Shown: positions 49,866-64,000 of the stretch, piece after piece
Layout of the letters: the number at the start of each line of letters is the position of its first letter
Numbering within the stretch: the stretch's first letter is position 1
Source: a virus
IMG/VR virus record: IMGVR_UViG_3300042691_018174
Length of the DNA: 64,000 nt
Direction: 5' to 3' (one strand)
The notes under the pieces: model-generated
The model's database searches: none
The model's input: only the letters and a program-made list of their open reading frames with translations
Told to the model about the DNA's origin: nothing
Made by a program: the position numbers and the translations under genes

Positions 49866-50111
49866 ATGCAGAACAATAATAAAAAGCGCAATATCACAGA
49901 AAGAATCACCAATTTGAATCAAGAGATCAATAGTATCAGCCAACAGTTGATACAACAGCAGGATCTAGATCAAAAACTGGCGCTACAGCAGACCATAGAC
50001 AGCCGAAGAGCTCAGATCACCGAACTGCACGTGACACTGGCCGTTTTGGATCAACAAGAGATAGCTGCCGTACAAGAGAAAATACAGGGCACCACTAGAT
50101 TCAGGATTTAA
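49866..50111 (+). CDS. Gln-rich coiled-coil hypothetical protein
   Basis: 81-aa ORF. Confidence 0.55.
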   Translation: MQNNNKKRNITERITNLNQEINSISQQLIQQQDLDQKLALQQTIDSRRAQITELHVTLAVLDQQEIAAVQEKIQGTTRFRI

Positions 50112-50144
50112 CTGTGCTGAATACCCCTGCTGTTAAATATCCGT

Positions 50145-50480
50145 ATGAAATTACAGCAAGTAGACAAATTACCACAAGGCTCGCGCAGTTTCCTCACAGT
50201 CACAGCCCAGGCCCAGCAGAAGATACGGGATCTAGTTAGGATCTCCCCACCGGGCTGCTTTCGCATACGTGCAGACATAGGATCTAAGACCACTGATTGG
50301 ACCTTTGCCTGGGACGATCAATTCAAAGATGAGGATTTTGTAGTGGACATTGACGACATAGAAATAGTCATGGATGCCACTACCATAGCCTACATCTTGG
50401 ACGAGTACACCCTGGACTTTGAGCTGGATCAGTTCAGCATATTCAAGAATCCCCTGGGTGCCCTAAGGCATCAGCAGTGA
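50145..50480 (+). CDS. IscA/HesB-like protein lacking canonical Cys motifs
   Basis: LTVT.QA..KI, IVMD......I....LDF, F.NP; TAAATA 5 nt upstream. Confidence 0.6.
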   Translation: MKLQQVDKLPQGSRSFLTVTAQAQQKIRDLVRISPPGCFRIRADIGSKTTDWTFAWDDQFKDEDFVVDIDDIEIVMDATTIAYILDEYTLDFELDQFSIFKNPLGALRHQQ

Positions 50481-51034
50481 TCACTGACTTATTCCCCCAG
50501 CCCATATGGATCAGGGATTCGGAACACGCTTGGGACTATAGATCCATGATATCGGCTGCAGAGCCCTGGGCCCGGCCACATGCGCTGACAGTTCAAGGAC
50601 AGAGTACCTACGCACAGCGACGTCAGATATTGGAACTACCTGAGTTCCACAAGCTGCACACATGGTTGGATTCTGAAGTCAGCACTTATCTAGACCTAGT
50701 GGGTTCAGTGAACAAGGTCACAGTGATCAACAGCTGGGTCAACTGGAATCCACCGGAGAGCAGCACAGACAGGCACTCACATCAGCTCAGTCGTGTCAGT
50801 GGTGTGTTTTATCTAGAAGCCGAACCCTGGTGCAGTCCCCTAAGACTGTACAGTAATCAAAGGCAGTTCCAAGGTTATGATTTCATCAGCAGGGAAACAG
50901 ACTACAATCAGCAGTACAGGGACATAGGCATATGCAGAGGCAGACTGATATTGTTCCCGGGCTGGATGGAACACTCAGTGCCCAAGACCGCTGGCCCACG
51001 CACTGTACTGAGTTTCAACACTGTGTTCGTTTAA
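50477..51034 (+). CDS. putative 2OG-Fe(II) oxygenase (TIGR02466-like)
   Basis: SWVN, HSH..SGVFY, LILFPGW.EH.V, R..LSFN. Confidence 0.85.
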   Translation: MITDLFPQPIWIRDSEHAWDYRSMISAAEPWARPHALTVQGQSTYAQRRQILELPEFHKLHTWLDSEVSTYLDLVGSVNKVTVINSWVNWNPPESSTDRHSHQLSRVSGVFYLEAEPWCSPLRLYSNQRQFQGYDFISRETDYNQQYRDIGICRGRLILFPGWMEHSVPKTAGPRTVLSFNTVFV

Positions 51035-51615
51035 ATTTCCACCAAGGTCAGTTCAGATTCACGACCCATGGTTCCCCGGAACTGTGTGTTAAAGCTCAGA
51101 GTGATGCGTCTCCGATCCGTGTGATTCACAGGCACAGCATGCGGTATCCAGCTGGGAAATAAGATCAACTCGCCACGATTTACAGTGATCACTTCTACAT
51201 CTCTAAGCTGACTGCGTTCTCCCAATTGATAGTTGCCCGAAACATTGCTGTGGAACTCTATATAGTTAGGTCCCTCAGTGAGATAGTATACTCCGCTGAC
51301 TGCACTGTTTAAATGTCTATGCTGATGATGACTGCTGCCCGGTTCATTGAAATTCAACCAACTCTGCGTGATAGCTAGTTCAGCAGTGGTCACATCCAAT
51401 ACCTGTTCACAGTACTGCTGTAGACTGCTGTTTATATGATCTCGTAGCTGATGGAAGTTATCATAACAGTTCAAAATCCTAGACTCTTCACTGGTACGAT
51501 TATAGGTATTGGTTCTACTGCGCTGAAAACAGTAGCTTAACACTGAATCTATATTGGGGAAATGCCTAGCCGGAAATCTAGCCATGGGCACTGAGAGTAA
51601 TGACTGTATATGCAT
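51031..51615 (-). CDS. putative 2OG-Fe(II) oxygenase (TIGR02466-like)
   Basis: QSWLN, HRH.NS.VSGVYY, LILFPSW..H.V, RITLSFN. Confidence 0.88.
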   Translation of the reverse strand: MHIQSLLSVPMARFPARHFPNIDSVLSYCFQRSRTNTYNRTSEESRILNCYDNFHQLRDHINSSLQQYCEQVLDVTTAELAITQSWLNFNEPGSSHHQHRHLNSAVSGVYYLTEGPNYIEFHSNVSGNYQLGERSQLRDVEVITVNRGELILFPSWIPHAVPVNHTDRRRITLSFNTQFRGTMGRESELTLVEI

Positions 51616-51629
51616 AATACACTAATTAG

Positions 51630-52083
51630 CAGTGAACCGCCATGGCCCAGAGTGGTTTTGATAGCCCCGCAGGGGCCAGCGACACTGGCGGCGCAGCCGC
51701 TGCGAAGCAGAGCAGCGCGATAGTCGCAGTTGGCACCTTTTGGCAGGGAAGGATACTTCACAGTGATTCTACAGTACGCATACAGTACGCATACAGTGAG
51801 TCACTGAGTGACTGCATTGGCAGACCAGCGTAAAAGAAACAATTACTGAACAGTAGAAGTCGCGGGACCGAAAGGGTCTACACAGTGTAAAAATCTGCTG
51901 CGCAAAATTTTTAAAAGTCGATTTTTTCGACCCCCACCACTTCTTAACCAGTGGGTTCGTGATTTTGGGCAATTTGTAAAGTTAGGAAAAAGTTTGAGTA
52001 GACTTGCGGGCTGTTGCTTTTTTACAACAGTTGTGTATATAAGCCACCACCCACCTACCTGCTGACATCAGCCACCACCACCA
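51630..52083. other. structured non-coding hinge (candidate origin, packaging or terminus site)
   Basis: Chain of mini-hairpins 51664-51727, 11-bp tandem repeat 51770-51797, A/T tracts, CCA repeats. Confidence 0.45.
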
Positions 52084-52401
52084 TTAATATCCACAGCCCC
52101 TGACGTCGCTGTTCAGTGACGGCTTCAACTGGGCTATCAACTCTCGCTCACGAGCATGTGCCGCAGCCTTGCCACGCACGATCTCTAAAGGGCGTATGTC
52201 TATAAGCTCCTTGCTGGCTAGTGTGCGCAGAGCTTGGCATAGTAGCCAACCCTTCTGCTCCACTGTGGCTCTGTAGTAGTGCTTATGGGCACGGCGTTGT
52301 AGACTGTGCAACACTGTCTTGTCTTTGTATGTGATACCAATGTAGCTCTGCTCATCTACACGGATCTCGTATATGATATGATTGCGTAGTTTAACGGACA
52401 T
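52084..52401 (-). CDS. GIY-YIG nuclease domain protein
   Basis: IIY...YIG, R..H, RERELI..LKPSLN; ATG after GGAG. Confidence 0.8.
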   Translation of the reverse strand: MSVKLRNHIIYEIRVDEQSYIGITYKDKTVLHSLQRRAHKHYYRATVEQKGWLLCQALRTLASKELIDIRPLEIVRGKAAAHARERELIAQLKPSLNSDVRGCGY

Positions 52402-52432
52402 AGTGTGCTCCAGTGCTTTAGTGTATGTGTGT

Positions 52433-52461
52433 AGTATAGCATCAAAGGTATTACCTGTCAA
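52433..52461 (-). promoter_or_regulatory. early sigma70 promoter P1
   Basis: TTGACA-17-TATACT. Confidence 0.9.
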
Positions 52462-52591
52462 CTCATATTGTGAATACCCATAAAGGGTGGCGGGGGATCT
52501 TATCGTAGGCCACTACCCCACGAACCCCCCGCCGTTTTGCTGGGACACTACTCCCAGCGGGTGTGACCCATTGCGGGCCACGGAGCAATCT

Positions 52592-52933
52592 TTAGTCTAG
52601 TCTACTGCCAGCATAGGCTTTCACGCCCAATGTCTGTGTGAGGTATTCAGCGGCAGCTTCTGCACCTGCTTCCAGTGTGTCCACATTCTGTACACACATC
52701 TCGCTGGGATTCCACAGTTGCAGTCCACCTGAGTAGCTCTTACGGAATCCTGCCTCGATCAATGCACGGCCCAACTTGGTTGAACCTTTCTCATATACAG
52801 TGACCCAAGCAAAGCCACAGGCGTATTGGTCACGCCCACCCAACTTTTCCATATAGAACTTCTTAGCGGCTAGACGTGCTTGTGCTTTAGCGCCTTCTAC
52901 GAACGAAATAACTTGCTCTTTGGTGTATGACAT
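52592..52933 (-). CDS. hypothetical protein
   Basis: CGFAWV motif; AAGGAG RBS. Confidence 0.85.
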   Translation of the reverse strand: MSYTKEQVISFVEGAKAQARLAAKKFYMEKLGGRDQYACGFAWVTVYEKGSTKLGRALIEAGFRKSYSGGLQLWNPSEMCVQNVDTLEAGAEAAAEYLTQTLGVKAYAGSRLD

Positions 52934-52963
52934 TTCAGCTCCTTAGTGTGTTACAGTCTTTAT

Positions 52964-52992
52964 AGTATATGCTCAGTGACTGGTTTTGTCAA
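52964..52992 (-). promoter_or_regulatory. early sigma70 promoter P2
   Basis: TTGACA-17-TATACT. Confidence 0.9.
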
Positions 52993-52999
52993 CCGTTTT

Positions 53000-53188
53000 T
53001 TAGTCTATCCAACCACAGAGTTTAGTGGCCAATACAGTGCAGAACACTCCAGTGCCTAGACACAGTGCGCCCACTGCTAGATTCAGTAGACCTGGAGTGG
53101 TCCAGCTCTGGCCGGCTACATAGAAGTTGATGAAGGCTATGAAGAATTGCAGTGCGCCCATGAGTTTGAAAAATTTAGTGTCAGTCAT
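53000..53188 (-). CDS. small membrane protein
   Basis: Two hydrophobic helices; RBS. Confidence 0.8.
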   Translation of the reverse strand: MTDTKFFKLMGALQFFIAFINFYVAGQSWTTPGLLNLAVGALCLGTGVFCTVLATKLCGWID

Positions 53189-53218
53189 TTCAGTTCCTTA
53201 GTGTGTTAGTGTATGTGC

Positions 53219-53247
53219 ATAATAGCACAGGGTTTAGGTTTTGTCAA
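53219..53247 (-). promoter_or_regulatory. early sigma70 promoter P3
   Basis: TTGACA-17-TATTAT. Confidence 0.9.
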
Positions 53248-53249
53248 CC

Positions 53250-53461
53250 GAATTCTTGTCTAAGGCCACGCTGTTCCACGGTCGCCCCTTAGCGGAGTTG
53301 TTGCCCTGTCCCGACACTAATCAGCATCTGCTACGTAGTGTCCACGCCGCTGGGTTGTCTGAGGTTCTTAGGCCTCGCTGTCGGTGCCCCAGCCACCGGG
53401 ATTCTATCGTTTACCACACGCTACTTTCAGGAAAGTAGTAACCGGAATCTCTTATAACTAT
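53250..53461 (-). ncRNA. candidate structured ncRNA 1 (~210 nt)
   Basis: Own promoter, no RBS or ORF, at least 6 helices plus a pseudoknot. Confidence 0.7.
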
Positions 53462-53467
53462 GACTGT

Positions 53468-53496
53468 ATTGTACAGTCATTTCTCTCAGCTGTCAA
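53468..53496 (-). promoter_or_regulatory. early sigma70 promoter P4 (drives ncRNA 1)
   Basis: TTGACA-17-TACAAT; -10 lies inside ATGACTGTA-TTG-TACAGTCAT palindrome. Confidence 0.85.
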
Positions 53497-53499
53497 CGG

Positions 53500-53688
53500 T
53501 TATCTGTAACCTGCCTGCCTGATGATCAGTGTGCCAATCCACATGAACAGGAGACCCAGGCCACTGACCGCAAGACTCTGCACCAGCTCTGTGTCTGTGA
53601 CACTGTTCTCAACACCGCCCACTCCCAACATGGTCAAGAGTATACCCATCACTACAAAAATCATTGCCTGGCTGTCTTGGCTCATCAT
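53500..53688 (-). CDS. small membrane protein
   Basis: Two hydrophobic segments. Confidence 0.75.
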   Translation of the reverse strand: MMSQDSQAMIFVVMGILLTMLGVGGVENSVTDTELVQSLAVSGLGLLFMWIGTLIIRQAGYR

Positions 53689-53927
53689 ATCTCTGCTTCC
53701 TCTGAGTATAGTATATCCACTGCTTCACTGTAGCCGTCTACACGGTAAACTTCCTTATAGGGTTCACCGGATCCTTGACTGTCCTGTACCACGACCAAGA
53801 TGTCATCGTATTCGGCCCACTCAGCACATTCCCGTTTGGCAGCTTCTAGATCTTCTGTACTGTGTACAATCTGATTGAACTCTGTGATCACTAGATAGTG
53901 ACGAGTGTAAGGACGTTTAGTTTTCAT
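53685..53927 (-). CDS. hypothetical protein
   Basis: ATG 1 nt after upstream stop. Confidence 0.75.
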   Translation of the reverse strand: MKTKRPYTRHYLVITEFNQIVHSTEDLEAAKRECAEWAEYDDILVVVQDSQGSGEPYKEVYRVDGYSEAVDILYSEEAEI

Positions 53928-53928
53928 A

Positions 53929-54183
53929 TCAATCAATGACCACTACACGGCGTACTAGTGTATTAGTCTCGCCAGTGTCCTCATCGTATTCATCATAGTC
54001 TTCTTCTATTGTGACCAACTTGTCCATGCGGTGGTAGTCGCTGAACTCTACAATGCCTTCGCTGACACGGCTAACACGGGGTGCAACCTCAGTCCTCCAA
54101 TGATCGCCATAGTTGTAGGCAAAGTGGACTTCTGCGTCCTGGTCCATGTACTGCAATGATTCGATCAGTTCTGCTACTTTCAT
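53929..54183 (-). CDS. hypothetical protein
   Basis: MKVAELIE.L..MD.DAEV phage motif; RBS. Confidence 0.85.
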   Translation of the reverse strand: MKVAELIESLQYMDQDAEVHFAYNYGDHWRTEVAPRVSRVSEGIVEFSDYHRMDKLVTIEEDYDEYDEDTGETNTLVRRVVVID

Positions 54184-54214
54184 TTCCGCTCCTTAGTGTT
54201 TAGTGTATGTGTGT

Positions 54215-54243
54215 ATAATAGCACAGATTTTATCTGTTGTCAA
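54215..54243 (-). promoter_or_regulatory. early sigma70 promoter P5
   Basis: TTGACA-17-TATTAT. Confidence 0.9.
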
Positions 54244-54458
54244 CCTTCTATCCAACAATCCCTGGCCAGCTCTGTGGTTATTGTCTGTCCACCAATGTAG
54301 TCCCCTGAGAACCCATACTTGCTTTCCAGTGTAAGGCTAGTGCCCGCATAGGTCTTCTTGATGGCAGTGATAACACCTGACTGTTCGATGTCTGACTTGA
54401 AGCAGACTACGTCTCCTACTGTGACCTCTTGGCCGTCTACATATGCTATCAAGCTCAT
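54240..54458 (-). CDS. hypothetical protein (SH3-like)
   Basis: V.VGD.V.FKSDIEQ.G.I; RBS. Confidence 0.8.
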   Translation of the reverse strand: MSLIAYVDGQEVTVGDVVCFKSDIEQSGVITAIKKTYAGTSLTLESKYGFSGDYIGGQTITTELARDCWIEG

Positions 54459-54471
54459 CTCTTGCTCCTAG

Positions 54472-54693
54472 TTAAACTAAATCAAAGTCCATGTCAGCTA
54501 CCACTGTCTCCAGTTGCTCTGCTAGTGTCGTTAACTCCGCTTTGCTCAGAGTGTCTAATGTCTCATCGTAGAAGTGTTGCATCAAGTCTGCATCCAGCTC
54601 GCAGTGGCGATCCATGTAGTCTAAGCCGCTGTCACCTTTGCGGTAGATTGCGTTGTATGCTTTGTCGATTCGTTTTGTTAGTGTTTTACTCAT
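54472..54693 (-). CDS. hypothetical protein
   Basis: RBS and promoter upstream. Confidence 0.8.
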   Translation of the reverse strand: MSKTLTKRIDKAYNAIYRKGDSGLDYMDRHCELDADLMQHFYDETLDTLSKAELTTLAEQLETVVADMDFDLV

Positions 54694-54724
54694 TTTCGCT
54701 CCTTAGTGTTTAGTGTATGTGTGT

Positions 54725-54753
54725 ATAATAGCACAGGTTTTATCTGTTGTCAA
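54725..54753 (-). promoter_or_regulatory. early sigma70 promoter P6
   Basis: TTGACA-17-TATTAT. Confidence 0.9.
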
Positions 54754-54977
54754 CCAGCTCCAAAGAATAACCCTACACAGTAAATGGTTAATAGAGCTGC
54801 ATTAATTACGATCAAGTTCCACTCACGTATACGTACACTCCAAATCAAATACAAAAAGGCACCCGCGTTCAACAAGTAAATGTTCATAGGGTCTATGCGC
54901 AAGGCTGTACACAGTGCCCCTGCTAGGGTGACCACACAGGCCACCCATTTTAATACAAAGTCTACGTTAATCAACAT
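54750..54977 (-). CDS. small 3-helix membrane protein
   Basis: Hydrophobic; KW....., P.NIY, W..R. Confidence 0.8.
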   Translation of the reverse strand: MLINVDFVLKWVACVVTLAGALCTALRIDPMNIYLLNAGAFLYLIWSVRIREWNLIVINAALLTIYCVGLFFGAG

Positions 54978-55152
54978 AATATTCTATACTGTCTGTAAGT
55001 GTAGTCAGCGCAATGTTTATCTCAGCCGCCCAGCCCATGTCTGTGGTCAAGTTATCTTCAAACTTCTCACCATCGCATGTAGCTTGTGCTAACAGATCCT
55101 GCATCTCTGCTAACAGGTTAAAAATTTTCTGTTGTACAATTGTACCTGCCAT
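54967..55152 (-). CDS. hypothetical protein
   Basis: RBS and promoter upstream. Confidence 0.75.
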   Translation of the reverse strand: MAGTIVQQKIFNLLAEMQDLLAQATCDGEKFEDNLTTDMGWAAEINIALTTLTDSIEYYVD

Positions 55153-55181
55153 TTTTAGCTCCTTTTGTTTAGTGTGTGCGT

Positions 55182-55210
55182 ACTATAGCACAGGTGGTTT
55201 TATCTGTCAA
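55182..55210 (-). promoter_or_regulatory. early sigma70 promoter P7
   Basis: TTGACA-17-TATAGT. Confidence 0.88.
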
Positions 55211-55250
55211 CCTGTTTTATTAAAAACCCTACACTGAGTAGGGTCTTTGC

Positions 55251-55466
55251 TTATGCTACAATTACAAAATCTTCTGCGCTTAGGTCTGCGACTGCTTTAG
55301 CAATTAAGCGGGGCAGATCTTCCTGCAGGCAGTCCCCTGACACATATACTGCATTTTTGCTATTGGGGCGAGATAGTGTATTAAATGCAACATAAAAACG
55401 ACTGCATTTGACAGCGTATTTGTTGGGGCTTTTTACTACGCGGACTTGGGCTGTACTTGCTTGCAT
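55251..55466 (-). CDS. hypothetical protein
   Basis: ATG (MQASTAQ) after AAGGAG. Confidence 0.8.
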   Translation of the reverse strand: MQASTAQVRVVKSPNKYAVKCSRFYVAFNTLSRPNSKNAVYVSGDCLQEDLPRLIAKAVADLSAEDFVIVA

Positions 55467-55495
55467 TTTTTGCTCCTTTTGTTTAGTGTGTAAAC

Positions 55496-55524
55496 AGTAT
55501 AGCAAAGGTTTTTCCAAATGTCAA
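55496..55524 (-). promoter_or_regulatory. early sigma70 promoter P8
   Basis: TTGACA-17-TATACT. Confidence 0.9.
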
Positions 55525-55570
55525 GCACTAGATAGAATACCCCTACAATCCGTGTGGGTATCGCCCAGTC

Positions 55571-55607
55571 AAAGTGACAGGGGAGACCACTAATAATCTC
55601 CCCTGTC
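55571..55607 (-). terminator. strong hairpin, possible terminator
   Basis: GACAGGGGAGA...TCTCCCCTGTC followed by ACTTT. Confidence 0.5.
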
Positions 55608-55663
55608 GGGTTGCCTCTGGGAGCGAATCAGAGGGCTTTTGCCACTGCTGTGGCATTAAACTA

Positions 55664-55954
55664 TTACAGAGTGATGCCCAAGCTCTGTGCTCGGTATGCA
55701 AGAGCTACCATCTTACGACTGGCTTCACCATACTTATACTCAGTGACCTGTACACCATTGCCGGCCTTACGGCTGTTAGCATAAATGGCATAACCACGCT
55801 GACGGATGTCGCTGACTGTGGCAGTAGGATTCTTAATGCCAAATCGCTTGGTCATCTGTGCAGGGGTTAGGACTTCGCGGTCCAATACCAATGCCTTGAA
55901 CAGTTTGCCTTGCTTAGTTTCTAGATCAAATCGCTTTAGTTTAGTTGTCTTCAT
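55664..55954 (-). CDS. winged-helix DNA-binding protein
   Basis: LT..Q...RFGI.NP.ATVSDIR..GY.I. Confidence 0.75.
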   Translation of the reverse strand: MKTTKLKRFDLETKQGKLFKALVLDREVLTPAQMTKRFGIKNPTATVSDIRQRGYAIYANSRKAGNGVQVTEYKYGEASRKMVALAYRAQSLGITL

Positions 55955-56005
55955 ATCTCATTTTCCTTTATATAAAGGGCTGTTTTTTATTGCAGCCATA
56001 ATATT

Positions 56006-56033
56006 ATTATAAAGGATCTACGTTACAAGTCAA
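56006..56033 (-). promoter_or_regulatory. sigma70 promoter P9
   Basis: TTGACT-16-TATAAT. Confidence 0.75.
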
Positions 56034-56041
56034 CAACTAAT

Positions 56042-56122
56042 TTAACCGTTTTTCAAACTGGAGCGGATCCAACCGTTGACTACCTTTTCCAATTCTTTGA
56101 TTGCATCTTGATCGGGTTTCAT
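56042..56122 (-). CDS. 26-aa peptide (not in ORF track)
   Basis: AAGGA RBS; MKPDQDAIKELEKVVNGWIRSSLKNG. Confidence 0.55.
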   Translation of the reverse strand: MKPDQDAIKELEKVVNGWIRSSLKNG

Positions 56123-56124
56123 AT

Positions 56125-56406
56125 TCATTCCTTCATAGAGTTGATAAAATCAATTGTTTCCTGCTCAATGGTATCCACCTCGTCGAAGCAGGCCAACACC
56201 ATCAGTTCACATACTACCTGTGCCTGTTTACGGTCACTGGGAGACAATGATTTGATAAAAGTCATAACTTGATCTTTATCATCCATGCTCCACATAAGGT
56301 CTGCCATTAGCTTCTGCTTCCTGCTCAAACCTTGAATCTTAATAGACACTGGACCTTCCATCCTGTCGTCAGCCATCTGTTTCTTGCTACGGTAACCAGC
56401 CATCAT
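56125..56406 (-). CDS. hypothetical protein
   Basis: ATGA-coupled. Confidence 0.8.
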   Translation of the reverse strand: MMAGYRSKKQMADDRMEGPVSIKIQGLSRKQKLMADLMWSMDDKDQVMTFIKSLSPSDRKQAQVVCELMVLACFDEVDTIEQETIDFINSMKE

Positions 56407-56666
56407 GCTTCCTTGATTAGTTTAGCCAACTGTTCATTCTTTTGTGTCTGTGCCATACGCAACATACGGCTACGGAAGTCTTCACGACGAGCCCGGGGCA
56501 GTTCACCAATAGCCTCTGCTAACAGAGTAGAATATAAACCGCAGGCATAAGCATAAGAACCATCGTGATTCTCACGTGAGGCCTTTTCCACTTCGTTGAT
56601 GGCATCGCGTGTCTCGCGGCACTCATCCAAGTATTCGTTAAATTTCTGTTGTGCTGACTTTGGCAT
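56403..56666 (-). CDS. hypothetical protein
   Basis: RBS and promoter upstream. Confidence 0.8.
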   Translation of the reverse strand: MPKSAQQKFNEYLDECRETRDAINEVEKASRENHDGSYAYACGLYSTLLAEAIGELPRARREDFRSRMLRMAQTQKNEQLAKLIKEA

Positions 56667-56696
56667 ACTCGCTCCTTAATTTGTTAGTGTACCTAC

Positions 56697-56725
56697 AGTA
56701 TACACTCACTCTACGAGATTGTCAA
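56697..56725 (-). promoter_or_regulatory. early sigma70 promoter P10 (inside 3' end of upstream gene)
   Basis: TTGACA-17-TATACT. Confidence 0.88.
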
Positions 56726-57038
56726 CCAAATCCCTGTAGTCTAGTGTGGGCTCTTTGAACTGGATCTCACCTTCCCACTCCAGCTGGCTCTTCTCGAAAG
56801 AGCTGAGGTAGTCGTCAGCTTCAATGCTCCAATCCACGACGTACTCGCGGCAATAGTCATTGTCCCGCTCTACGCCAGCCGCCGCTACCACTTCGGCGTG
56901 GTCGATGTTCAGCGGCACACCAAGGACCTTGTACTCGCTGCCACCCTTCATCTTCCAGTACTGTGGGCAAGCACCCTTGCCGTCCCAGTCGTGGGCACCA
57001 TAGTTTTCCATGTATTGTGTGCGAATGACTAGCATCAT
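56706..57038 (-). CDS. hypothetical protein
   Basis: TQYMENYGAH...YWK.KGG; RBS. Confidence 0.85.
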   Translation of the reverse strand: MMLVIRTQYMENYGAHDWDGKGACPQYWKMKGGSEYKVLGVPLNIDHAEVVAAAGVERDNDYCREYVVDWSIEADDYLSSFEKSQLEWEGEIQFKEPTLDYRDLVDNLVE

Positions 57039-57069
57039 GTTCAGCTCCTTAGTGTGTTAGTGTTCCTAC

Positions 57070-57098
57070 AGTATAGCGCCACTTGGTGGTTTTGTCAA
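57070..57098 (-). promoter_or_regulatory. early sigma70 promoter P11
   Basis: TTGACA-17-TATACT. Confidence 0.9.
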
Positions 57099-57310
57099 GC
57101 TCTTTCAAACATCCTGATCAGTTCGTTGTGTAAAAACGACACCTCATCACGCTCCACATAGAAGTCTGTGCGTGGGTCGTAGTAAGAACCTTCCTTTGGA
57201 TCGTAGTACAAGATCCTGCCGTTAGCAAAGACATAAGGACCTTCCAATCCCTTTCTAGGACCGTAACCTTTAAGTAGGTCTTCTGTCTTACCTAGAACCT
57301 TGTAGCCCAT
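57095..57310 (-). CDS. hypothetical protein with YYDP (OCRE-like) repeats
   Basis: ATG after GGAG; YYDPKEGSYYDPRTDFY. Confidence 0.8.
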   Translation of the reverse strand: MGYKVLGKTEDLLKGYGPRKGLEGPYVFANGRILYYDPKEGSYYDPRTDFYVERDEVSFLHNELIRMFERA

Positions 57311-57311
57311 A

Positions 57312-57602
57312 TCAGTCTCCCGAATCAACTTGAAAACGATCTCCACACTCACTGCAGGTGAATTCTGTGAGGCATCGTCCCACCGTCTGACTGGAGTATT
57401 TGTGGTGACAGGGGTCACCATCCCGGTTGAGACGGACTTGACCTTTTGGTTTTCCGAACATATACTGACCCCCGCAGTTGGTGCAATCCAGGGTATCAGT
57501 CTCTTTATCGTAGCCAGCGATAACATTCTTGTATCGCTCCATACTGATCGGCACTGCGACTCTGCCGCTGCCGTTGCAAACTGGACAAGTTCCGTATTCC
57601 AT
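57312..57602 (-). CDS. zinc-finger protein (DnaJ-like CxxCxGxG)
   Basis: CPVCNGSG, CTNCGG, CSECG. Confidence 0.85.
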   Translation of the reverse strand: MEYGTCPVCNGSGRVAVPISMERYKNVIAGYDKETDTLDCTNCGGQYMFGKPKGQVRLNRDGDPCHHKYSSQTVGRCLTEFTCSECGDRFQVDSGD

Positions 57603-57625
57603 CTTCAGCTCCTTAGTATGTCTAC

Positions 57626-57654
57626 AGTATAGCGTCGGTTTTGTCTTTTGTCAA
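57626..57654 (-). promoter_or_regulatory. early sigma70 promoter P12
   Basis: TTGACA-17-TATACT. Confidence 0.9.
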
Positions 57655-57682
57655 CCAGAATTTTTGTTGTATTTTTACAACA

Positions 57683-57889
57683 GGTGCTTCCCCCCTGCGG
57701 CGGTAATTGTAGCACATCAAGTGGCGATCTTTACATCGCACACCATCACACATGCCTTCCACCCGCTCCCCGACCAGGAGTGATTCTCGCATTGCCAGCG
57801 CCAGTTCGGTATGACTGGAACCACCCTCGACTGCCACTGTCGCTTCTCATCGTGCGGGTCACACTATCCGGAGGCACCGGAACGTTCTG
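57683..57889 (-). ncRNA. candidate structured ncRNA 2 (~205 nt)
   Basis: GC-rich gap in a dense array with multiple helices and long-range pairings. Confidence 0.65.
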
Positions 57890-57994
57890 TTAGTCTATAA
57901 AAATCCAGTATGTGCCCAACAGCACGGCATAGATCGCCGCTGCCTGTACCACATACTTGAGTTCAAGCCATTCAACCAATTCTTTTATTGTCAT
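57890..57994 (-). CDS. 34-aa membrane peptide (not in ORF track)
   Basis: GAGG RBS; MTIKELVEWLELKYVVQAAAIYAVLLGTYWIFID. Confidence 0.65.
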   Translation of the reverse strand: MTIKELVEWLELKYVVQAAAIYAVLLGTYWIFID

Positions 57995-57996
57995 GA

Positions 57997-58251
57997 TTAA
58001 GCCTCGACAAAGTTGATGCTGGGGTCGAGAGCCTTAAGCTCATTGGCCACGGCAGTGAGTTCACGGTAACGACTACGCACCTGTGAGGCAGATAGCTCGC
58101 CATCACAAGTCAAGTTCTCTGGACTTAAGGCACTGTCGATGATCTCTGCGATGCGCTGACGATCTGCAGCCACGGTCAAGTCCAAAGCCTTGATACCGAA
58201 CACCGAATTGAATTGATTGCGTTGCTTGACGAATTGAAGTAGTGCTTTCAT
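57997..58251 (-). CDS. hypothetical protein
   Basis: LSPENLTCDGE motif; RBS. Confidence 0.85.
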   Translation of the reverse strand: MKALLQFVKQRNQFNSVFGIKALDLTVAADRQRIAEIIDSALSPENLTCDGELSASQVRSRYRELTAVANELKALDPSINFVEA

Positions 58252-58280
58252 TTCTGCTCCTTGTTTAACAATGTTCCACT

Positions 58281-58309
58281 AGTATACTGCCAGTGGTTTT
58301 ATCTGTCAA
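58281..58309 (-). promoter_or_regulatory. early sigma70 promoter P13
   Basis: TTGACA-17-TATACT. Confidence 0.9.
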
Positions 58310-58387
58310 GAGTTTTCTAAGATTATTCTGTTGTATTTTTACAACAACCAGGCACTGCCAATCAGCTTACAGCGGGAAACACTGGTC

Positions 58388-58783
58388 CTACTCCACCATG
58401 CTTAGATGCTTGCAGGACCTTCTGAATTGGAACCCTGGGCAGCTACAATGGTACCGGCTTGACTCTTTGGTGACGACGTAGACGCTGCCTTTGCTTCCCG
58501 GGATTTCCCACCTTGCTCTACTTGAAACTTCTGCTTCTCCAGCAAGGACATCAGTTCCATCCAAGGATGTGATACTGTGGACATGATCAATTGGTATGAT
58601 GCTGTCTGGGTGTTGCGGATTGCCTGTATGTAATTTGAATGTGCCTGGAGCATCCCATTTGTTGCTTGGAACCACTGTTCCAGTGTATTCGTGGTAATCA
58701 TACTGATCCTTTGCGAAATAAAAATGTGTCTTCCATTTAGTCACCACCCGTAGGTGTTGACCTACGAGCGGCAACTTATACAT
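58388..58783 (-). CDS. SWIM zinc-finger protein
   Basis: GS.G..Y.V...CSCPGF.FR..CKH. Confidence 0.85.
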   Translation of the reverse strand: MYKLPLVGQHLRVVTKWKTHFYFAKDQYDYHEYTGTVVPSNKWDAPGTFKLHTGNPQHPDSIIPIDHVHSITSLDGTDVLAGEAEVSSRARWEIPGSKGSVYVVTKESSRYHCSCPGFQFRRSCKHLSMVE

Positions 58784-59127
58784 TAGAAGGATGCGTCTTC
58801 GAGATCAGCTTCTACTTTATCTGCCTTAGCCTTAGGGGCCTTGGCACTCTTAGTAGGCTTGGCGGGCTGTAGCTCCACCTTACGTTTAGCAGCTTCTGCT
58901 TGAATGGCAGCAGCTTTATCGAGATCACCATCGGAGAAGTCGATGCTGATCAAGTAACTAACGATCTGTTCCTTGGTCATGGCATGCGGCAACTCGATAA
59001 GATCGATGTTGGTATGACCACCCTTGAGCAAGACCTTAACACGTGTCATGTCGTTGGCGAAACGAACCTTAGTAGAACCATTGGGCAAAGTACTAGTACC
59101 TGCAACTGCGTAAGTCGATTGAGACAT
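58783..59127 (-). CDS. hypothetical protein with K/A-rich tail
   Basis: KVRFAND..R; AAGGA RBS. Confidence 0.85.
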   Translation of the reverse strand: MSQSTYAVAGTSTLPNGSTKVRFANDMTRVKVLLKGGHTNIDLIELPHAMTKEQIVSYLISIDFSDGDLDKAAAIQAEAAKRKVELQPAKPTKSAKAPKAKADKVEADLEDASF

Positions 59128-59174
59128 TACATTTCCTTTCTATGTGTGTGTATACTGGACCATCCAGTATTAAT

Positions 59175-59203
59175 ATTATACAGTGTTTCGAAAAATTTGT
59201 CAA
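59175..59203 (-). promoter_or_regulatory. early sigma70 promoter P14 (perfect consensus)
   Basis: TTGACA-17-TATAAT; leader hairpin ATACTGGA-TGG-TCCAGTAT. Confidence 0.92.
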
Positions 59204-59206
59204 CCA

Positions 59207-59332
59207 TTATTTGACTGCTTCTTTCGAAACTGACTGCACCTTCTGGACACCATTGTCCAAAACTTTGGCCAATCCGGTGAACCCGATATTGGCAACTACG
59301 ATTCCAATTACAATACCAATCAATAACTGCAT
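59207..59332 (-). CDS. 41-aa membrane peptide (not in ORF track)
   Basis: AAGGAG RBS; MQLLIGIVIGIVVANIGFTGLAK... Confidence 0.75.
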   Translation of the reverse strand: MQLLIGIVIGIVVANIGFTGLAKVLDNGVQKVQSVSKEAVK

Positions 59333-59351
59333 GACTGACTCCTTCTGTGTG

Positions 59352-59429
<78 letters not shown>

Positions 59430-59436
59430 GTTAAAT

Positions 59437-59865
59437 TTAATCAGCTTCGAAACAAAAATCTTCAAACATGGCCACTGGACCATCAAAAATACATTCGTTC
59501 TTATCACTCATCGTAAGACCAAACATATTACTACCTCTATCTTTGACCATTACGCAGAGCTCACTATCCTTTTCGTAGACGTGGTACTCATAGTCCTGAC
59601 CGCAGTCTGTAGCTTCAACGCTGTGGATGTAAAAGCCACCCACGCTCTGCTTGAAGTGTGAGATCAACTGCGCAGCCAAGCAACCCATGCCGTTGGCAGT
59701 CTTGCGTGTCTCTCCTACTGCAATGCCATTAGTGATGGCAGCGAACTGCTGAAGAAACTCATAAAGCTCTGCACCATGACCTGTAGGATAGCCATCGTAT
59801 TGACGATAAAGATTGACTATTGGCTTACCGTGATCGTAAACAATAGTGAGGCAACGTGTTCCCAT
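59437..59865 (-). CDS. hypothetical protein
   Basis: MGTR...YRQYDGYP.GHG phage motif. Confidence 0.85.
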   Translation of the reverse strand: MGTRCLTIVYDHGKPIVNLYRQYDGYPTGHGAELYEFLQQFAAITNGIAVGETRKTANGMGCLAAQLISHFKQSVGGFYIHSVEATDCGQDYEYHVYEKDSELCVMVKDRGSNMFGLTMSDKNECIFDGPVAMFEDFCFEAD

Positions 59866-59895
59866 TTTTCGCTCCTTAGTTAACAGTATGTCTAA

Positions 59896-59924
59896 AGTAT
59901 ACTACCAAAATGGCCCTTTGTCAA
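59896..59924 (-). promoter_or_regulatory. early sigma70 promoter P15
   Basis: TTGACA-17-TATACT. Confidence 0.9.
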
Positions 59925-60400
59925 GAGCCAGTGCCCATATGAAGTTCATTTCCGTTCTTCAGTCGGAAGCCTTCGACGAAGATGTGATGGTCGTCACCAC
60001 TTTCCCGAATAGCAAGATCTGCGGCACTCCACAAGTCGATCCAGTTTGGACCCATCACTGGGTAGTGCTTACGACTATCACCCCAGTGCTGATCGTAGAC
60101 TACGAAGCTGTCGCTGGGGAATGGGTGTGGTGTATAGAAGTCATCAATCTCGAACATGCTCCAAATGCTGCGGAACTTCATCTCTTGACGGACACTGGTA
60201 TAGTAGTCGTGCTTGTGATCAAAAGCCTCAGAGTCTTGACGGTAAGCATCAGCAAGACCCTGCTCAAAACTTTGGATCACTGCCTCAAGGCGCTCTACCT
60301 TAACCATGCTCTGCTGCATGTCGCCTACGATGCTGCGCAACTCGCAGAGGGTGTTGTGAACAGTTTTGAAGTCTTCACTGTGTAGAGTAACTGTCTGCAT
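59921..60400 (-). CDS. hypothetical protein
   Basis: SGDDHHIFVEGF; RBS. Confidence 0.85.
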   Translation of the reverse strand: MQTVTLHSEDFKTVHNTLCELRSIVGDMQQSMVKVERLEAVIQSFEQGLADAYRQDSEAFDHKHDYYTSVRQEMKFRSIWSMFEIDDFYTPHPFPSDSFVVYDQHWGDSRKHYPVMGPNWIDLWSAADLAIRESGDDHHIFVEGFRLKNGNELHMGTGS

Positions 60401-60401
60401 A

Positions 60402-60662
60402 TTAAGCTCCTTGAAAATAGACTGCTTGAATTTTATTTGCTACACGATCTTCGACATAAGCAATAGCACCCTCAAAAACTACATTGGGGTGATTAAGCAC
60501 ACGGTTGGCGATAATGCGCACACCGCGCTCGGAGACATTGACTGGGTAGCCTGGGTTGTTGGTCTCGGCACCCTGAGCTGTGTAATTGTACTTGCCCCGG
60601 CACCCGCACATACAACCTATACGTCCGGAATAAGTTTTGATGATGTTTTGATTGCTAAACAT
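60402..60662 (-). CDS. hypothetical protein (GCMCGC motif)
   Basis: YSG..GCMCGCRGKY. Confidence 0.85.
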   Translation of the reverse strand: MFSNQNIIKTYSGRIGCMCGCRGKYNYTAQGAETNNPGYPVNVSERGVRIIANRVLNHPNVVFEGAIAYVEDRVANKIQAVYFQGA

Positions 60663-60690
60663 TTTCGCTCCTTTGTTTTACTATGCCTAC

Positions 60691-60719
60691 AGTATAGCAC
60701 CGATATTACCGACTGTCAA
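60691..60719 (-). promoter_or_regulatory. early sigma70 promoter P16
   Basis: TTGACA-17-TATACT. Confidence 0.9.
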
Positions 60720-60754
60720 CCGTTTTGTTGAATACCCATACAACTTGTATGGGA

Positions 60755-61000
60755 TTAAAAGTCTGCTGTAAGCTCTCCAGTGGATTGATCTAAACTTACA
60801 AATACCTTACCCACTTCATGGTCTCCAGTGCCTGCTTCGTCAAAGTAGGTTACCTTGTAGCAGAACTGTCCGCCATTGGTAATGCCTAGGAACTTGGCAG
60901 TCTCAAAGGCACACATGGTATAGCCCGATGTGTCAAGGACCCTAGCTAGGTCTTTGGGAGTGAAGTTTATAAGTTCTATGAGAGTGTCTGCTGTAATCAT
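60755..61000 (-). CDS. hypothetical protein
   Basis: FLGITNGGQFCY; RBS. Confidence 0.85.
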   Translation of the reverse strand: MITADTLIELINFTPKDLARVLDTSGYTMCAFETAKFLGITNGGQFCYKVTYFDEAGTGDHEVGKVFVSLDQSTGELTADF

Positions 61001-61024
61001 TGTCTGCTCCTTTAGTATGTCATT

Positions 61025-61053
61025 AGTATAGCACCGGTTTTACCAAATGTCAA
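61025..61053 (-). promoter_or_regulatory. early sigma70 promoter P17
   Basis: TTGACA-17-TATACT. Confidence 0.9.
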
Positions 61054-61120
61054 CCGAAAAAAAGAGGTGTTGTAAAAATACAACACCCCATATAAAGCCC
61101 CCATTGCAGGGGCGGAGCAA

Positions 61121-61810
61121 TTAATCAAACTTGATAGGCTGGGGCTTGTTCAAACCCTTCTTCTCTGCGCCGTCCTCTAGAAACTCTTCTAGCTCGTCGG
61201 CTTCCTCTTCGTTCTCTGCTTCCCACTCGGCCATGCCGCAGGAAATATTCCACATGTCGTCCATTTCGTCGCCAATAAGGTCGCGAACATCCTTGCTAGT
61301 GTAGCCGTTGAGCTCAAAGCAATCATCATACAACATCTCACCACTATCGAACTCTGCACGACCAACGAAGCACATGCCACTCTCGTAATAGTCTAGCGTC
61401 ATGCTCACATCTGGATTCTGCTCTGCATAGAAAGCAAATGCTGTCACAGGTGGTGACCAGGCACTGTCGAACCATCCAGTGATACGAGCATGAGGACCTT
61501 TGCCACCATTGTCATAGTTGACATCCTCGTCCTGCTCGAACTCTAGACCTTCAGGACTGACTTCCCATTTGGTTCCCCAGTTCTGGACACGCCAGTCCCA
61601 CCAGCTCTGTCCTTTAGCCACAGGCTCGTTGTTGCCTACAATGCCTGGGAATGTGGGTAGCACATCCACTTCATCATAGTTAGGTTCGGAACGCATGCCA
61701 CGAAGCAACCCACCACCTTGGTCTTCATCCTTGACAGCCTGCTCCCACAGAGCCTTGATCTTATCACGGGGACCTACAATCTGAATTGAGTTATTACACC
61801 AGTTAGGCAT
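61121..61810 (-). CDS. DUF1281/YubB ferredoxin-like domain protein
   Basis: MPNWCNN, WR..NWGTKW, FDSAWSPP, YYESG. Confidence 0.8.
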   Translation of the reverse strand: MPNWCNNSIQIVGPRDKIKALWEQAVKDEDQGGGLLRGMRSEPNYDEVDVLPTFPGIVGNNEPVAKGQSWWDWRVQNWGTKWEVSPEGLEFEQDEDVNYDNGGKGPHARITGWFDSAWSPPVTAFAFYAEQNPDVSMTLDYYESGMCFVGRAEFDSGEMLYDDCFELNGYTSKDVRDLIGDEMDDMWNISCGMAEWEAENEEEADELEEFLEDGAEKKGLNKPQPIKFD

Positions 61811-61970
61811 TGTCAATCTCCTTTAGTTGTTTAGCAATTTCAATTTCTTCAGCCAGTTTATTAGCAGTGGATCCTAAGATCCTTAAGATCTTAATCAGTT
61901 CTTCATCTGGAAGGTCTTGGGCCTGCACTTCACCCAAGCACCTTTCCATTAATTCAAACTTACCTTTCAT
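61803..61970 (-). CDS. 55-aa hypothetical protein (not in ORF track)
   Basis: ATGA-coupled to upstream gene; fills the gap exactly. Confidence 0.65.
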   Translation of the reverse strand: MKGKFELMERCLGEVQAQDLPDEELIKILRILGSTANKLAEEIEIAKQLKEIDNA

Positions 61971-62239
61971 GCGGCACTCAGCATGTTAGCAGGCACACGC
62001 CACATACCTTGCTGGGTAGCCACTGTCACATACTTACGACCCACCTTACTCACCGTGCCCTTGTAGGTCATGCCATTCTTGCTAGAAGTGAATTGAACAT
62101 TGGCACCAGTTCGCATGGTAAATATGTTCTTCTGTGTGATACGGCTACGAGCAAACTTGACTGCATCCATGATGCTGTTCAGCTCATCGTTAGTGAAGTT
62201 ACCTTGCAGGATCTCTGCATTTACAGTTTGAATTGACAT
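61967..62239 (-). CDS. hypothetical protein (SH3-like C-terminus)
   Basis: G..V.F...G.V.KV.RK...WRVPA.ML. Confidence 0.85.
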   Translation of the reverse strand: MSIQTVNAEILQGNFTNDELNSIMDAVKFARSRITQKNIFTMRTGANVQFTSSKNGMTYKGTVSKVGRKYVTVATQQGMWRVPANMLSAA

Positions 62240-62269
62240 TTCACGCTCCTTGTTTAACAGTATGCCTAA

Positions 62270-62298
62270 AGTATAGCACCGGTTTTACCAGTTGTCAA
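62270..62298 (-). promoter_or_regulatory. early sigma70 promoter P18
   Basis: TTGACA-17-TATACT. Confidence 0.9.
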
Positions 62299-62317
62299 GT
62301 CTTTTGATGTTGTATTT

Positions 62318-62590
62318 TTACAACACCCCTTCTTCTTCCAACTCCTTGACCACTTCGTTGAATAGGTCATCTAGTTCTTCCGGAGTCATCCTGTTGTTTT
62401 TTCGCAACTGCCCGGCACTCCTGCCTTTGGTAAGAGCTGACCCTACGACATAGACTCGGGGGTAATGTTCTGCACAATAGCTCTTACCTGGGAGGCTAGG
62501 GTGACCACAAGGAGTGGTAGGACCATCCCTTGGGTCTTGATCAGAGCCTAACCATTCGCAAGGTACTACACGAGTGGACTTTAAGATCAT
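62318..62590 (-). CDS. GcrA C-terminal-like zinc-binding protein
   Basis: CEW...CG.P...SYC.EH...VY. Confidence 0.6.
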   Translation of the reverse strand: MILKSTRVVPCEWLGSDQDPRDGPTTPCGHPSLPGKSYCAEHYPRVYVVGSALTKGRSAGQLRKNNRMTPEELDDLFNEVVKELEEEGVL

Positions 62591-62591
62591 A

Positions 62592-63446
62592 TTAAGCTCG
62601 CTTCATACAAGTAAGAGCAGCCACAGACTTCCACTTCTCAGGCATAGCTGCACGGAGGTCTGCAACCTTAATCACCATACGCAGACTCAGCTCGCGCATC
62701 TTGTCCTTGTTGCTTTCAATAAACTGTACCACCTCAGCCTTAGCTTCGTCAGTGAGTTCGTATACATCCAGCATACCATCACCTACAATCTGCTTGATAC
62801 GCAGGATCTTCTCACGGGTAGTGTCAATAGTCAAATCCAGATAGTGACAGCGTGACTCTAATGCATCCAAGTGGTCGCGGAGCTTCTTAGAACGAACATG
62901 CTCGAACTTGATGTTAGTAATAAAAATGGCACTGCCGCAGAACTCAAAGCTGTTGGGGATGCCTTCGCTACGCAGGATGCGACTGTCTGTGTTCCAGCTA
63001 ATAGTACGCTTCTTGCTACTGTCCAGAGCAGCCTTCAAAATATTAAGGCTCAGTTCGTCCAACAGTACACTGTCACAGTCGTCGAACACCAGTACATTAC
63101 CCTTCTTGCTAAACTCATAGAGCTTAGAGTATAGACCGATGGCACTCATAGCACCCTTGACAACTTCGTAACGCGGCTTGCGTTCACCCATCTTGTCAAA
63201 GAGATCGTCCTTTGTAAGTACTGCCTCAACGCCAAAGGATTTACCAACGCCGGGAGGGCCGCTGACGATCATAGCACGGACATCACCTTTGCGTACACCT
63301 TTGGTCATATCTTCGAGGATAGTGAATCGTTCTTTGATACGATCCATAATCTGCTGATCAGTTTCTTTAGCCACCTCACGCTCGCGCTTCTTGATAGCCT
63401 CAGTGTCGAAGTCCAAAAGTTTCGTTGCGTTTGCACTCTTTGCCAT
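62592..63446 (-). CDS. AAA+-type P-loop ATPase
   Basis: GPPGVGKS, VLVFDDCD, FITN, SR. Confidence 0.9.
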   Translation of the reverse strand: MAKSANATKLLDFDTEAIKKREREVAKETDQQIMDRIKERFTILEDMTKGVRKGDVRAMIVSGPPGVGKSFGVEAVLTKDDLFDKMGERKPRYEVVKGAMSAIGLYSKLYEFSKKGNVLVFDDCDSVLLDELSLNILKAALDSSKKRTISWNTDSRILRSEGIPNSFEFCGSAIFITNIKFEHVRSKKLRDHLDALESRCHYLDLTIDTTREKILRIKQIVGDGMLDVYELTDEAKAEVVQFIESNKDKMRELSLRMVIKVADLRAAMPEKWKSVAALTCMKRA

Positions 63447-63477
63447 TACATGCTCCTGTGTGTTATTTAAAGTCTGT

Positions 63478-63505
63478 ATTATACACGAAAAAAAGGTTTT
63501 GTCAA
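63478..63505 (-). promoter_or_regulatory. early sigma70 promoter P19
   Basis: TTGACA-16-TATAAT. Confidence 0.85.
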
Positions 63506-63999
63506 GCCTGTTTCATAAAGACCACAAAACCCGTACGGTCTTTCTTAGCACGGCCCTTAGCCTTCAAGCCCAAGATCACACCCTTGGGATCCAAGAAGCG
63601 AAGGTCTGTTTCATCCGCATTGAACACGGGACGACCCATATAAGTCTCTGGGATTTCATCAAAGACCACAGTCACATTCATTCCTTGTGCAAGAGCTTTC
63701 TGTACATCAGCATCGTTACCATCTGCGGCACTGAAGGTCAAGTGGTAGTTCTTGTACTTAGAAGTCTTACGACCCAAGACCTTAGTGTAGTCATAGAACT
63801 GAACATCGGGGAACAGTTCAAAGATATTGTTCTCGTTGATAGTGTACTTCTCCCAGCTAAGGTCACTAGTACCATTCAAACGGAACACGGGAGTCAAACC
63901 CTGACGTTCTGCATAGCGAACGGCACGAGCAATGTCCTCATAGAGATCCATCATAAAGTAGTCGCGAGCTTCAAAGAAGTAACGTGTCTTGCGGATGCG
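63502..63999 (-). CDS. GP88-family protein (5' end beyond window)
   Basis: RLNGTSD, FYDYTK, NYHLTFS, D.RFLD, GLKAKG; frame open to window edge. Confidence 0.75.
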   Translation of the reverse strand, partial: RIRKTRYFFEARDYFMMDLYEDIARAVRYAERQGLTPVFRLNGTSDLSWEKYTINENNIFELFPDVQFYDYTKVLGRKTSKYKNYHLTFSAADGNDADVQKALAQGMNVTVVFDEIPETYMGRPVFNADETDLRFLDPKGVILGLKAKGRAKKDRTGFVVFMKQA

Positions 64000-64000
64000 A

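Follow-up and report, generated by a model that had tools for sequence, protein, structure and literature searches.

A one-strand array of near-consensus sigma70 promoters in an uncultured freshwater jumbo phage, probably a recombination-prone early region of PeSL type

The sequence studied here, referred to as the window, is the whole stretch of 64,000 nucleotides (nt) of the IMG/VR virus record IMGVR_UViG_3300042691_018174. Its source is an uncultured freshwater jumbo phage, apparently T4-like and virulent, and it encodes a T4-type large terminase (N-domain), a giant tail-sheath protein, a DnaB-like helicase and other phage proteins. The last part of the window carries an array of small genes, all on the minus strand, which are preceded at short intervals by near-consensus sigma70 promoters. 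The largest protein of this array is an AAA ATPase, homologous to nrdC.10 of T4, and its best match in a cultured phage is in the Pseudomonas jumbo phage PA5oct (52% identity). A near-identity search of deposited phage genomes matched the transfer RNA (tRNA) only, and revealed no close cultured relative in that collection.

Relatives were found instead among metagenomic contigs. Relatives of the AAA protein turned up on more than 590 contigs in IMG/VR; 80 loci were kept for comparison (L numbers designate loci on other contigs). Nearly all of these 80 loci present dense promoter arrays on one strand, with up to 35 promoters in 20 kb. L001 is collinear with the window and 98% identical to it. 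Genes were called with a codon-usage scoring scheme, with two manual fixes in the window, and were then clustered; residual errors in the calls add noise to the comparisons. The promoters (P1 to P19), their open reading frames (ORFs, with lengths in amino acids, aa) and the associated elements are as follows.

52009-63505, minus strand: part of the early-promoter array lying in the window, 19 transcription units on this strand only
63478-63505, minus strand: P1, TTGACA-16-TATAAT; its -35 box includes the TGA stop of the upstream GP88-like gene (63502-63954)
62592-63446, minus strand: P1 cargo, the AAA ATPase (T4 nrdC.10 homologue, phrog_1250)
62318-62590, minus strand: P1 cargo, a 90-aa protein with a weak match to the C-terminal part of GcrA
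62305-62329, minus strand: stem-loop TGTTGTA-loop-TACAACA, just upstream of P2
62270-62298, minus strand: P2, with ORFs 61967-62239 (90 aa), 61803-61970 (55 aa) and 61121-61816 (231 aa, DUF1281_C)
61097-61113 and 61064-61089, minus strand: terminators of the P2 unit
61025-61053, minus strand: P3, with ORF 60755-61000 (81 aa), then a hairpin at 60735-60753
60691-60719, minus strand: P4, with ORFs 60402-60662 (86 aa) and 59921-60400 (159 aa)
59896-59924, minus strand: P5, with ORF 59437-59865 (142 aa), tRNA-Met(CAT) at 59352-59429 and ORF 59207-59332 (41 aa, hydrophobic)
59175-59203, minus strand: P6, a 12/12 site, with ORFs 58783-59127 (114 aa) and 58388-58783 (131 aa, weak SWIM zinc finger), then a stem-loop at 58326-58350
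58281-58309, minus strand: P7, with ORFs 57997-58251 (84 aa) and 57890-57994 (34 aa), then an RNA gene
57683-57889, minus strand: structured RNA of about 205 nt following the P7 ORFs; a stem-loop at 57662-57682 comes after it
57626-57654, minus strand: P8, with ORFs 57312-57602 (96 aa, Cys-rich, zinc-ribbon-like) and 57095-57310 (71 aa)
57070-57098, minus strand: P9, whose -35 box supplies the TGA stop of the upstream gene, with ORF 56706-57038 (110 aa)
56697-56725, minus strand: P10, within the 3' end of the upstream ORF, with ORFs 56403-56666 (87 aa), 56125-56406 (93 aa) and 56042-56122 (26 aa)
56006-56033, minus strand: P11, TTGACT-16-TATAAT, with ORF 55664-55954 (96 aa, winged helix HTH_39)
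55540-55663, minus strand: hairpin-rich non-coding stretch after the P11 ORF, 88% conserved in L002 over 75 nt
55496-55524, minus strand: P12, with ORF 55251-55466 (71 aa), then a terminator at 55226-55244
55182-55210, minus strand: P13, with ORFs 54967-55152 (61 aa) and 54750-54977 (75 aa)
54725-54753, minus strand: P14, with ORFs 54472-54693 (73 aa) and 54240-54458 (72 aa)
54215-54243, minus strand: P15, with ORFs 53929-54183 (84 aa), 53685-53927 (80 aa) and 53500-53688 (62 aa)
53468-53496, minus strand: P16, the sole promoter without a ribosome-binding site and ORF, preceding 218 gene-free nt (53250-53467)
53219-53247, minus strand: P17, with ORF 53000-53188 (62 aa, hydrophobic)
52964-52992, minus strand: P18, with ORF 52592-52933 (113 aa), then 130 non-coding nt (52462-52591)
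52433-52461, minus strand: P19, with ORF 52084-52401 (105 aa, weak GIY-YIG-like pattern); a stem-loop at 52009-52029 closes the array

The promoters were located by a consensus scan, which yielded 19 sigma70 sites on the minus strand, from 63505 to 52433, each matching the consensus at 11-12 of 12 positions. The -35 hexamer is TTGACA in 18 cases and TTGACT in the other one (56033), the spacer measures 17 nt in 17 promoters and 16 nt in two (63505 and 56033), and the -10 hexamer is TATACT in 11. These counts are exactly those reported by the first-pass annotation of this DNA, and they lie far above the chance level: when the 11.1-kb region was shuffled 300 times with its dinucleotides preserved, there were 0.29 sites per shuffle on average, with 3 as the highest count. 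Under the same criterion, the remaining 52 kb of the window presented one minus-strand and four plus-strand sites. A perfect 12/12 site (TTGACA-17-TATACT) is also found at 8272-8300 on the plus strand, inside the gene of a 2292-aa virion protein (7086-13964), where it may be due to chance or be an internal promoter. The array continues beyond the end of the window, since L001 has five further promoters upstream of 63505; the density is 19 promoters in 11 kb, or about 24 in 14 kb. The guanine-plus-cytosine (GC) content of the array is about 47%, compared with about 36% for positions 1-50000 of the window. Among 43 relatives, the array exceeded its own flanks in GC content in 40 (mean 47.0% vs 44.4%).

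Downstream of the -10 hexamer, 18 of the 19 promoters are followed within 26-53 nt by an AAGGAG-type Shine-Dalgarno (SD) sequence and an ATG; the exception is the promoter at 53496. The stereotyped leader proposed in the first-pass annotation is thus real, although looser than was claimed. An alignment of the window modules gave a consensus past the -10 of approximately AGACATACTAA..AA..GGAG, with GG preceding the -35 and TGC, an extended -10, preceding the -10. In the same alignment the A-rich core of the spacer proved to be specific to the window. The start region ACA.ACAT is conserved in the window modules and is common to 643 modules of relatives.

On the upstream side, a hairpin lies directly before seven or eight of the 19 promoters (62298, 61053, 60719, 58309, 57654, 55524, 55210 and, weakly, 52461), and the remaining promoters, without a clear hairpin, abut or overlap the upstream ORF. 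The TGTTGTA/TACAACA stem-loop found before P2 recurs at 61064-61089, 58326-58350, 57662-57682 and, at the end of the array, 52009-52029. In five units the next TTGACA contributes its TGA as the stop codon of the gene upstream (63502-63504, 59921-59923, 57095-57097, 54750-54752 and 54240-54242, minus strand), so that the -35 box also terminates translation. Several hairpins were observed as well in the non-coding stretches that end two of the units, 55540-55663 and 52462-52591 on the minus strand.

The cargo of the array amounts to 32 ORFs of 26-284 aa, one tRNA-Met and two candidate non-coding RNAs (57683-57889 and 53250-53467), in agreement with the small genes, tRNA and non-coding RNA announced by the first reading of the sequence. 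That reading had also held nearly all the cargo to be of unknown function, and indeed searches of Pfam and PHROGs assigned a function to none of the cargo proteins. The above-threshold domain matches in these databases were DUF1281_C, the winged helix and, for the AAA protein, a family of unknown function; those to GcrA, SWIM, a ProQ C-terminal-like domain and a zinc ribbon were all under the curated cut-offs. An OCRE match, narrowly above its cut-off on a short Tyr-rich stretch, was not trusted. For most of the window's cargo families, members were found in 10-50 of the 80 loci: the 114-aa family of P6 was found in 46, and the 113-aa family of P18 in 50, the protein atlas returning only viral hypotheticals for the latter. 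The gene-free 218 nt after P16, one of the two RNA candidates, is conserved in the window and L001 only.

The relation between the promoters and changes in gene content was examined in pairs of near-identical contigs. Five indels in such pairs correspond to units of promoter plus gene lying between two promoter modules, and three of the five leave a chimeric promoter. In L059, two promoters placed 266 nt apart surround a 63-aa gene, and L060 (99.3% identical) has a single promoter at this site, whose 5' part is that of the first L059 promoter and whose 3' part is that of the second. The same chimeric pattern was observed between L004 and L005 (242 nt, 98% identity) and between L066 and L072 (280 nt, about 92% identity). 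Furthermore, a promoter-bracketed 46-aa gene is present in L066 only (L066 5245/5422 vs L072 6042), and a promoter-flanked gene for a PstS-like phosphate-binding protein in L175 only (L175 4250-5235 vs L174 6031; the pair is 97% identical and belongs to a more distant clade). A comparable arrangement involves the window itself: P1 joins the 5' flank of the L002 promoter at 9477 to the leader of the L002 promoter at 9943, and in L002 these two promoters bracket an extra 129-aa gene. The crossovers fall between the -35 and the leader; their exact points vary from case to case, within the longest shared runs. The cargo gene that begins at the L066 5422-5460 and L072 6042-6080 modules starts only 7 nt past the -10 (TATAATACACATATG), which suggests a leaderless mRNA.

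It might be argued that these indels are artefacts, produced by collapse or mis-joining of assemblies at short repeated promoter sequences, since only metagenome contigs were compared and the junction repeats measure 15-40 nt. Such repeats are shorter than the k-mers common in the last rounds of metagenome assembly, which counts against this idea, although the settings used for these contigs may differ. Moreover, the samples that yielded the long forms are not those of the short ones, reading frames are intact and a complete promoter is present in either form, and the same pattern has been shown experimentally in cultured T4-type phages (PMC2839356). We regard an origin in the assembly as extremely improbable.

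The modules themselves carry a further sign of exchange. P14 and P15 are 97% identical over 66 nt, with an exact run of 40 nt, and precede different genes. When non-orthologous modules were compared, 4.0% of the pairs within a genome were at least 70% identical in spacer plus leader, vs 0.33% between genomes, a 12-fold difference. In addition, a nearly identical module can be found at different gene junctions in different genomes, between pairs of genes that are otherwise translationally coupled. In these comparisons the modules behave as copies and not as independent convergences. They are also maintained between orthologous genes: at the three commonest promoter-bearing junctions, the promoter was kept in 21 of 21, 18 of 18 and 16 of 17 orthologous cases among diverged relatives. 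At two conserved junctions (families 25-7 and 53-7) the promoter seemed to be lost only because its sites fell just below the cut-off.

With respect to gene order, the first-pass annotation had named a fixed arrangement among relatives, or breakpoints unrelated to the modules, as grounds against its idea. The comparison of relatives showed neither: the order is not fixed, and breakpoints coincide with modules in the five promoter-flanked indels and in P1 compared with L002. The layouts of the 80 loci combine a loose backbone order with many displaced, inserted or replaced genes. The cargo families are mostly found upstream of the AAA gene, which is the normal end of the array, and are downstream of it in the window, L001 and L002. 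Genes that are operon partners in one genome are separated in others, and some families are present in two or three copies per array. Where two adjacent genes of one genome are both held by another, their adjacency was retained in a fraction of 0.24 across a promoter and 0.34 within the same unit (counted per unique adjacency, p = 1.4e-4); a pairwise count gave 41% and 66%, respectively. Single-gene indels were of three kinds: 59 concern a gene between two promoters (promoter-gene-promoter), 65 lie within operons without a promoter, and 47 add a gene to the end of the preceding unit, gene-calling errors inflating the last two classes. Promoters are preferred, but not exclusive, breakpoints. 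Units bounded by promoters are gained and lost, in a pattern less regular than the interchangeable cassettes of the first-pass annotation.

These figures leave some room for a simpler explanation, in which the array is an ordinary cluster of early genes whose strong promoters are needed for early expression, resemble each other through the sigma70 consensus, and play no special part in genome change. It would fit with the large share of gene gain and loss that occurs within operons, with an order that is fluid both across promoters and within units, and with the loose backbone order that survives in most relatives. However, such a cluster would account poorly for the chimeric promoters at the cassette indels of three independent near-identical pairs, to which two more promoter-flanked cases are added. 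Neither would it explain why positions that the consensus does not constrain, in the spacer and the leader, are more alike within than between genomes, nor why identical modules are found at different junctions. For these reasons we consider this explanation unlikely.

A second alternative is a dedicated cassette system driven by an enzyme, integron-like or nuclease-stimulated, in which a phage protein would recognize the modules, through a GGTAAAACC-type spacer or the hairpin, and would catalyze excision and insertion. The conservation of the spacer motif and of the TGTTGTA/TACAACA hairpin beyond what a promoter needs could be taken in its favor, as could the small gene that ends the array (ORF 52084-52401), which recurs in 15 loci and whose invariant residues (IIY, YIG, R, H, E, N) fit the GIY-YIG pattern. 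However, the GIY-YIG match of this protein is below threshold (Pfam E = 0.18), and neither its sequence nor its family profile finds a relative of solved structure. Furthermore, searches of Pfam and PHROGs revealed no integrase, transposase or recombinase domain in any array protein, and crossover points that vary within the longest shared runs are those expected of exchange driven by homology. An enzyme of this kind is therefore very improbable. The description of the array as integrase-free, made in the first-pass annotation, holds because no recombinase domain was found in its proteins.

One element of the cargo deserves separate mention, the RNA at 57683-57889. A scan of positions 50000-64000 against Rfam reported tRNA only, and the region 57640-57920 gave no Rfam match even at E values up to 10. 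Folded alone, 57655-57889 has an unremarkable z-score of -1.2. Its reading as an RNA gene comes from the comparison with relatives and not from the energy of the single sequence: the distant relative L038 is 78% identical to it and keeps the hairpins despite the changed sequence. A 20-mer of this RNA is common to 28 other viral contigs (IMG/VR, L081-L108), many of whose copies sit beside or directly after tRNA genes. It thus appears to be a member of an uncatalogued RNA family that in phages is usually located beside tRNA genes. The sole difference between the window and L001 is a block of 287 nt (57603-57889, minus strand) that comprises this RNA gene, the stem-loop, P8 and its leader; at this site L001 presents the TAA of the 34-aa gene, then ATT, then the ATG of the next gene, a gap of three bases. 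The RNA gene behaves as array cargo, present in one and absent from the other of two genomes that are 98% identical.

Taken together, we consider it likely, with a probability of roughly 0.8, that the array is the hyperplastic region in which a virulent, T4-like jumbo phage carries its early genes, and that it consists of regulatory modules of the PeSL (Promoter early Stem-Loop) type known from T4-type phages. On infection, the sigma70 RNA polymerase of the host would recognize some two dozen promoters close to the consensus (GG-TTGACA, 17 nt, TG-n-TATACT/TATAAT), presumably for early expression. The transcript from each promoter would be short and would combine a strong AAGGAG ribosome site with one to three small accessory genes, a tRNA or a stable RNA, and in about eight of the 19 units a putative hairpin terminator directly upstream of the next promoter would close the unit. 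Since the modules measure 45-70 nt and are alike within a genome, they also serve as portable patches of homology, as the comparison of relatives shows. Recombination from module to module, within a genome or between co-infecting relatives, deletes, inserts or swaps the DNA between them, and afterwards the neighboring genes retain a promoter and a ribosome site.

Several observations weigh against this interpretation. The 65 indels within operons and the 47 appended genes, set against 59 of the cassette type, indicate that promoters are not the sole breakpoints. The adjacency effect is modest, and may be due in part to selection for the joint retention of co-translated genes, or to spacers that are longer and more tolerant where a promoter lies (median gap of 66 nt vs 1 nt). 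The 287-nt block that distinguishes the window from L001 contains a module, and is not flanked by two of them. The upstream stem-loop that defines a full PeSL accompanies only seven or eight of the 19 promoters. The relatives are all metagenome assemblies, in which a few indels could be errors at repeats, and the promoters are predicted from sequence. As for the first-pass annotation, the comparison of genomes partly supports its view of a recombination-prone PeSL-type array of early promoters, which seems right in kind, with cassettes less regular than it suggested; the PeSL elements it cited were the right precedent. Its further proposals, a cargo for host takeover and anti-defence and an action of the array as an RNA polymerase sink, are guesses.

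A bolder extension of the PeSL-type interpretation is that a phage factor reads the GGTAAAACC-type spacer motif or the TGTTGTA/TACAACA hairpin, shuts off early transcription and stimulates the excision of circles made of promoter plus gene, which would move between co-infecting phages of the freshwater clade. We hold this to be quite doubtful; if true, it would amount to a real cassette exchange network, free of integrase, that carries both RNA and protein genes.

Papers of 2010 and 2014 already described this mechanism, with its signature, in T4-type phages, so the system itself is not new. The value of the present case lies in the breadth of the clade and in the clean evidence at the junctions: PeSL architecture and chimeric-promoter scars can now be traced in a large uncultured clade of freshwater jumbo phages, with more than 590 contigs. 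Such breadth suggests that coliphages are no special case, and that big virulent phages in general exchange small early genes in a promoter-guided way. In addition, the arrays mark, at the resolution of single genes, a large pool of early genes, with many families shared by dozens of relatives. These shared families are natural candidates for host-takeover or counter-defence screens.

Among known systems, the host-takeover module of the Bacillus phage SPO1 is also a compact group of small early genes in which each gene, or each few, has a strong promoter of host type, as in the window. The SPO1 module lies in the terminal redundancy, and its promoters are not known to have a role in shuffling; no sequence relation between it and the window array was found. 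Integrons differ from the array, since no domain of a site-specific tyrosine recombinase was detected in the array proteins with Pfam and PHROGs, and the crossover points vary. PA5oct, which among cultured phages is the closest by its AAA protein (52%), depends on host RNA polymerase, and RNA-seq placed 32 TTGAC/TATAATA promoters at its transcript starts (Lood et al. 2020, PMC7318152). It shares this promoter type with the array, but in that work the promoters are not described as recombination sites.

The closest parallel is found in the PeSL elements of the hyperplastic regions of T4-type phages, whose shuffling has been documented in only three cultured pairs, RB49/phi1, T4/PST and KVP40/nt-1 (Arbiol et al. 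2010, PMC2839356; Comeau et al. 2014, PMC4122927). In RB49/phi1 the PeSL promoters are TTGACA-N17-TATAAT and mini-circles form between elements (PMC2839356); degraded or partial elements have also been described (Comeau 2014, PMC4122927). The array differs from these cases in its host phage, which belongs to an uncultured freshwater jumbo clade with PA5oct as best cultured match and is not a classical T-even, in its high promoter density, in the stem-loop, frequent upstream of PeSL promoters, being present on only seven or eight of the 19 modules, and in a cargo that includes a tRNA and stable RNAs. In both, a near-perfect sigma70 promoter is followed by an SD and a start codon (18 of 19 here), and the elements are concentrated in a variable region of small ORFans, here 19 sites in 11 kb vs five in the other 52 kb. 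The array also holds a homologue of T4 nrdC.10. In both, close relatives differ by indels that have an element at either end and leave a single chimeric one, and the crossover zone is roughly that of RB49/phi1, between the -35/-10 and the start codon (PMC2839356).

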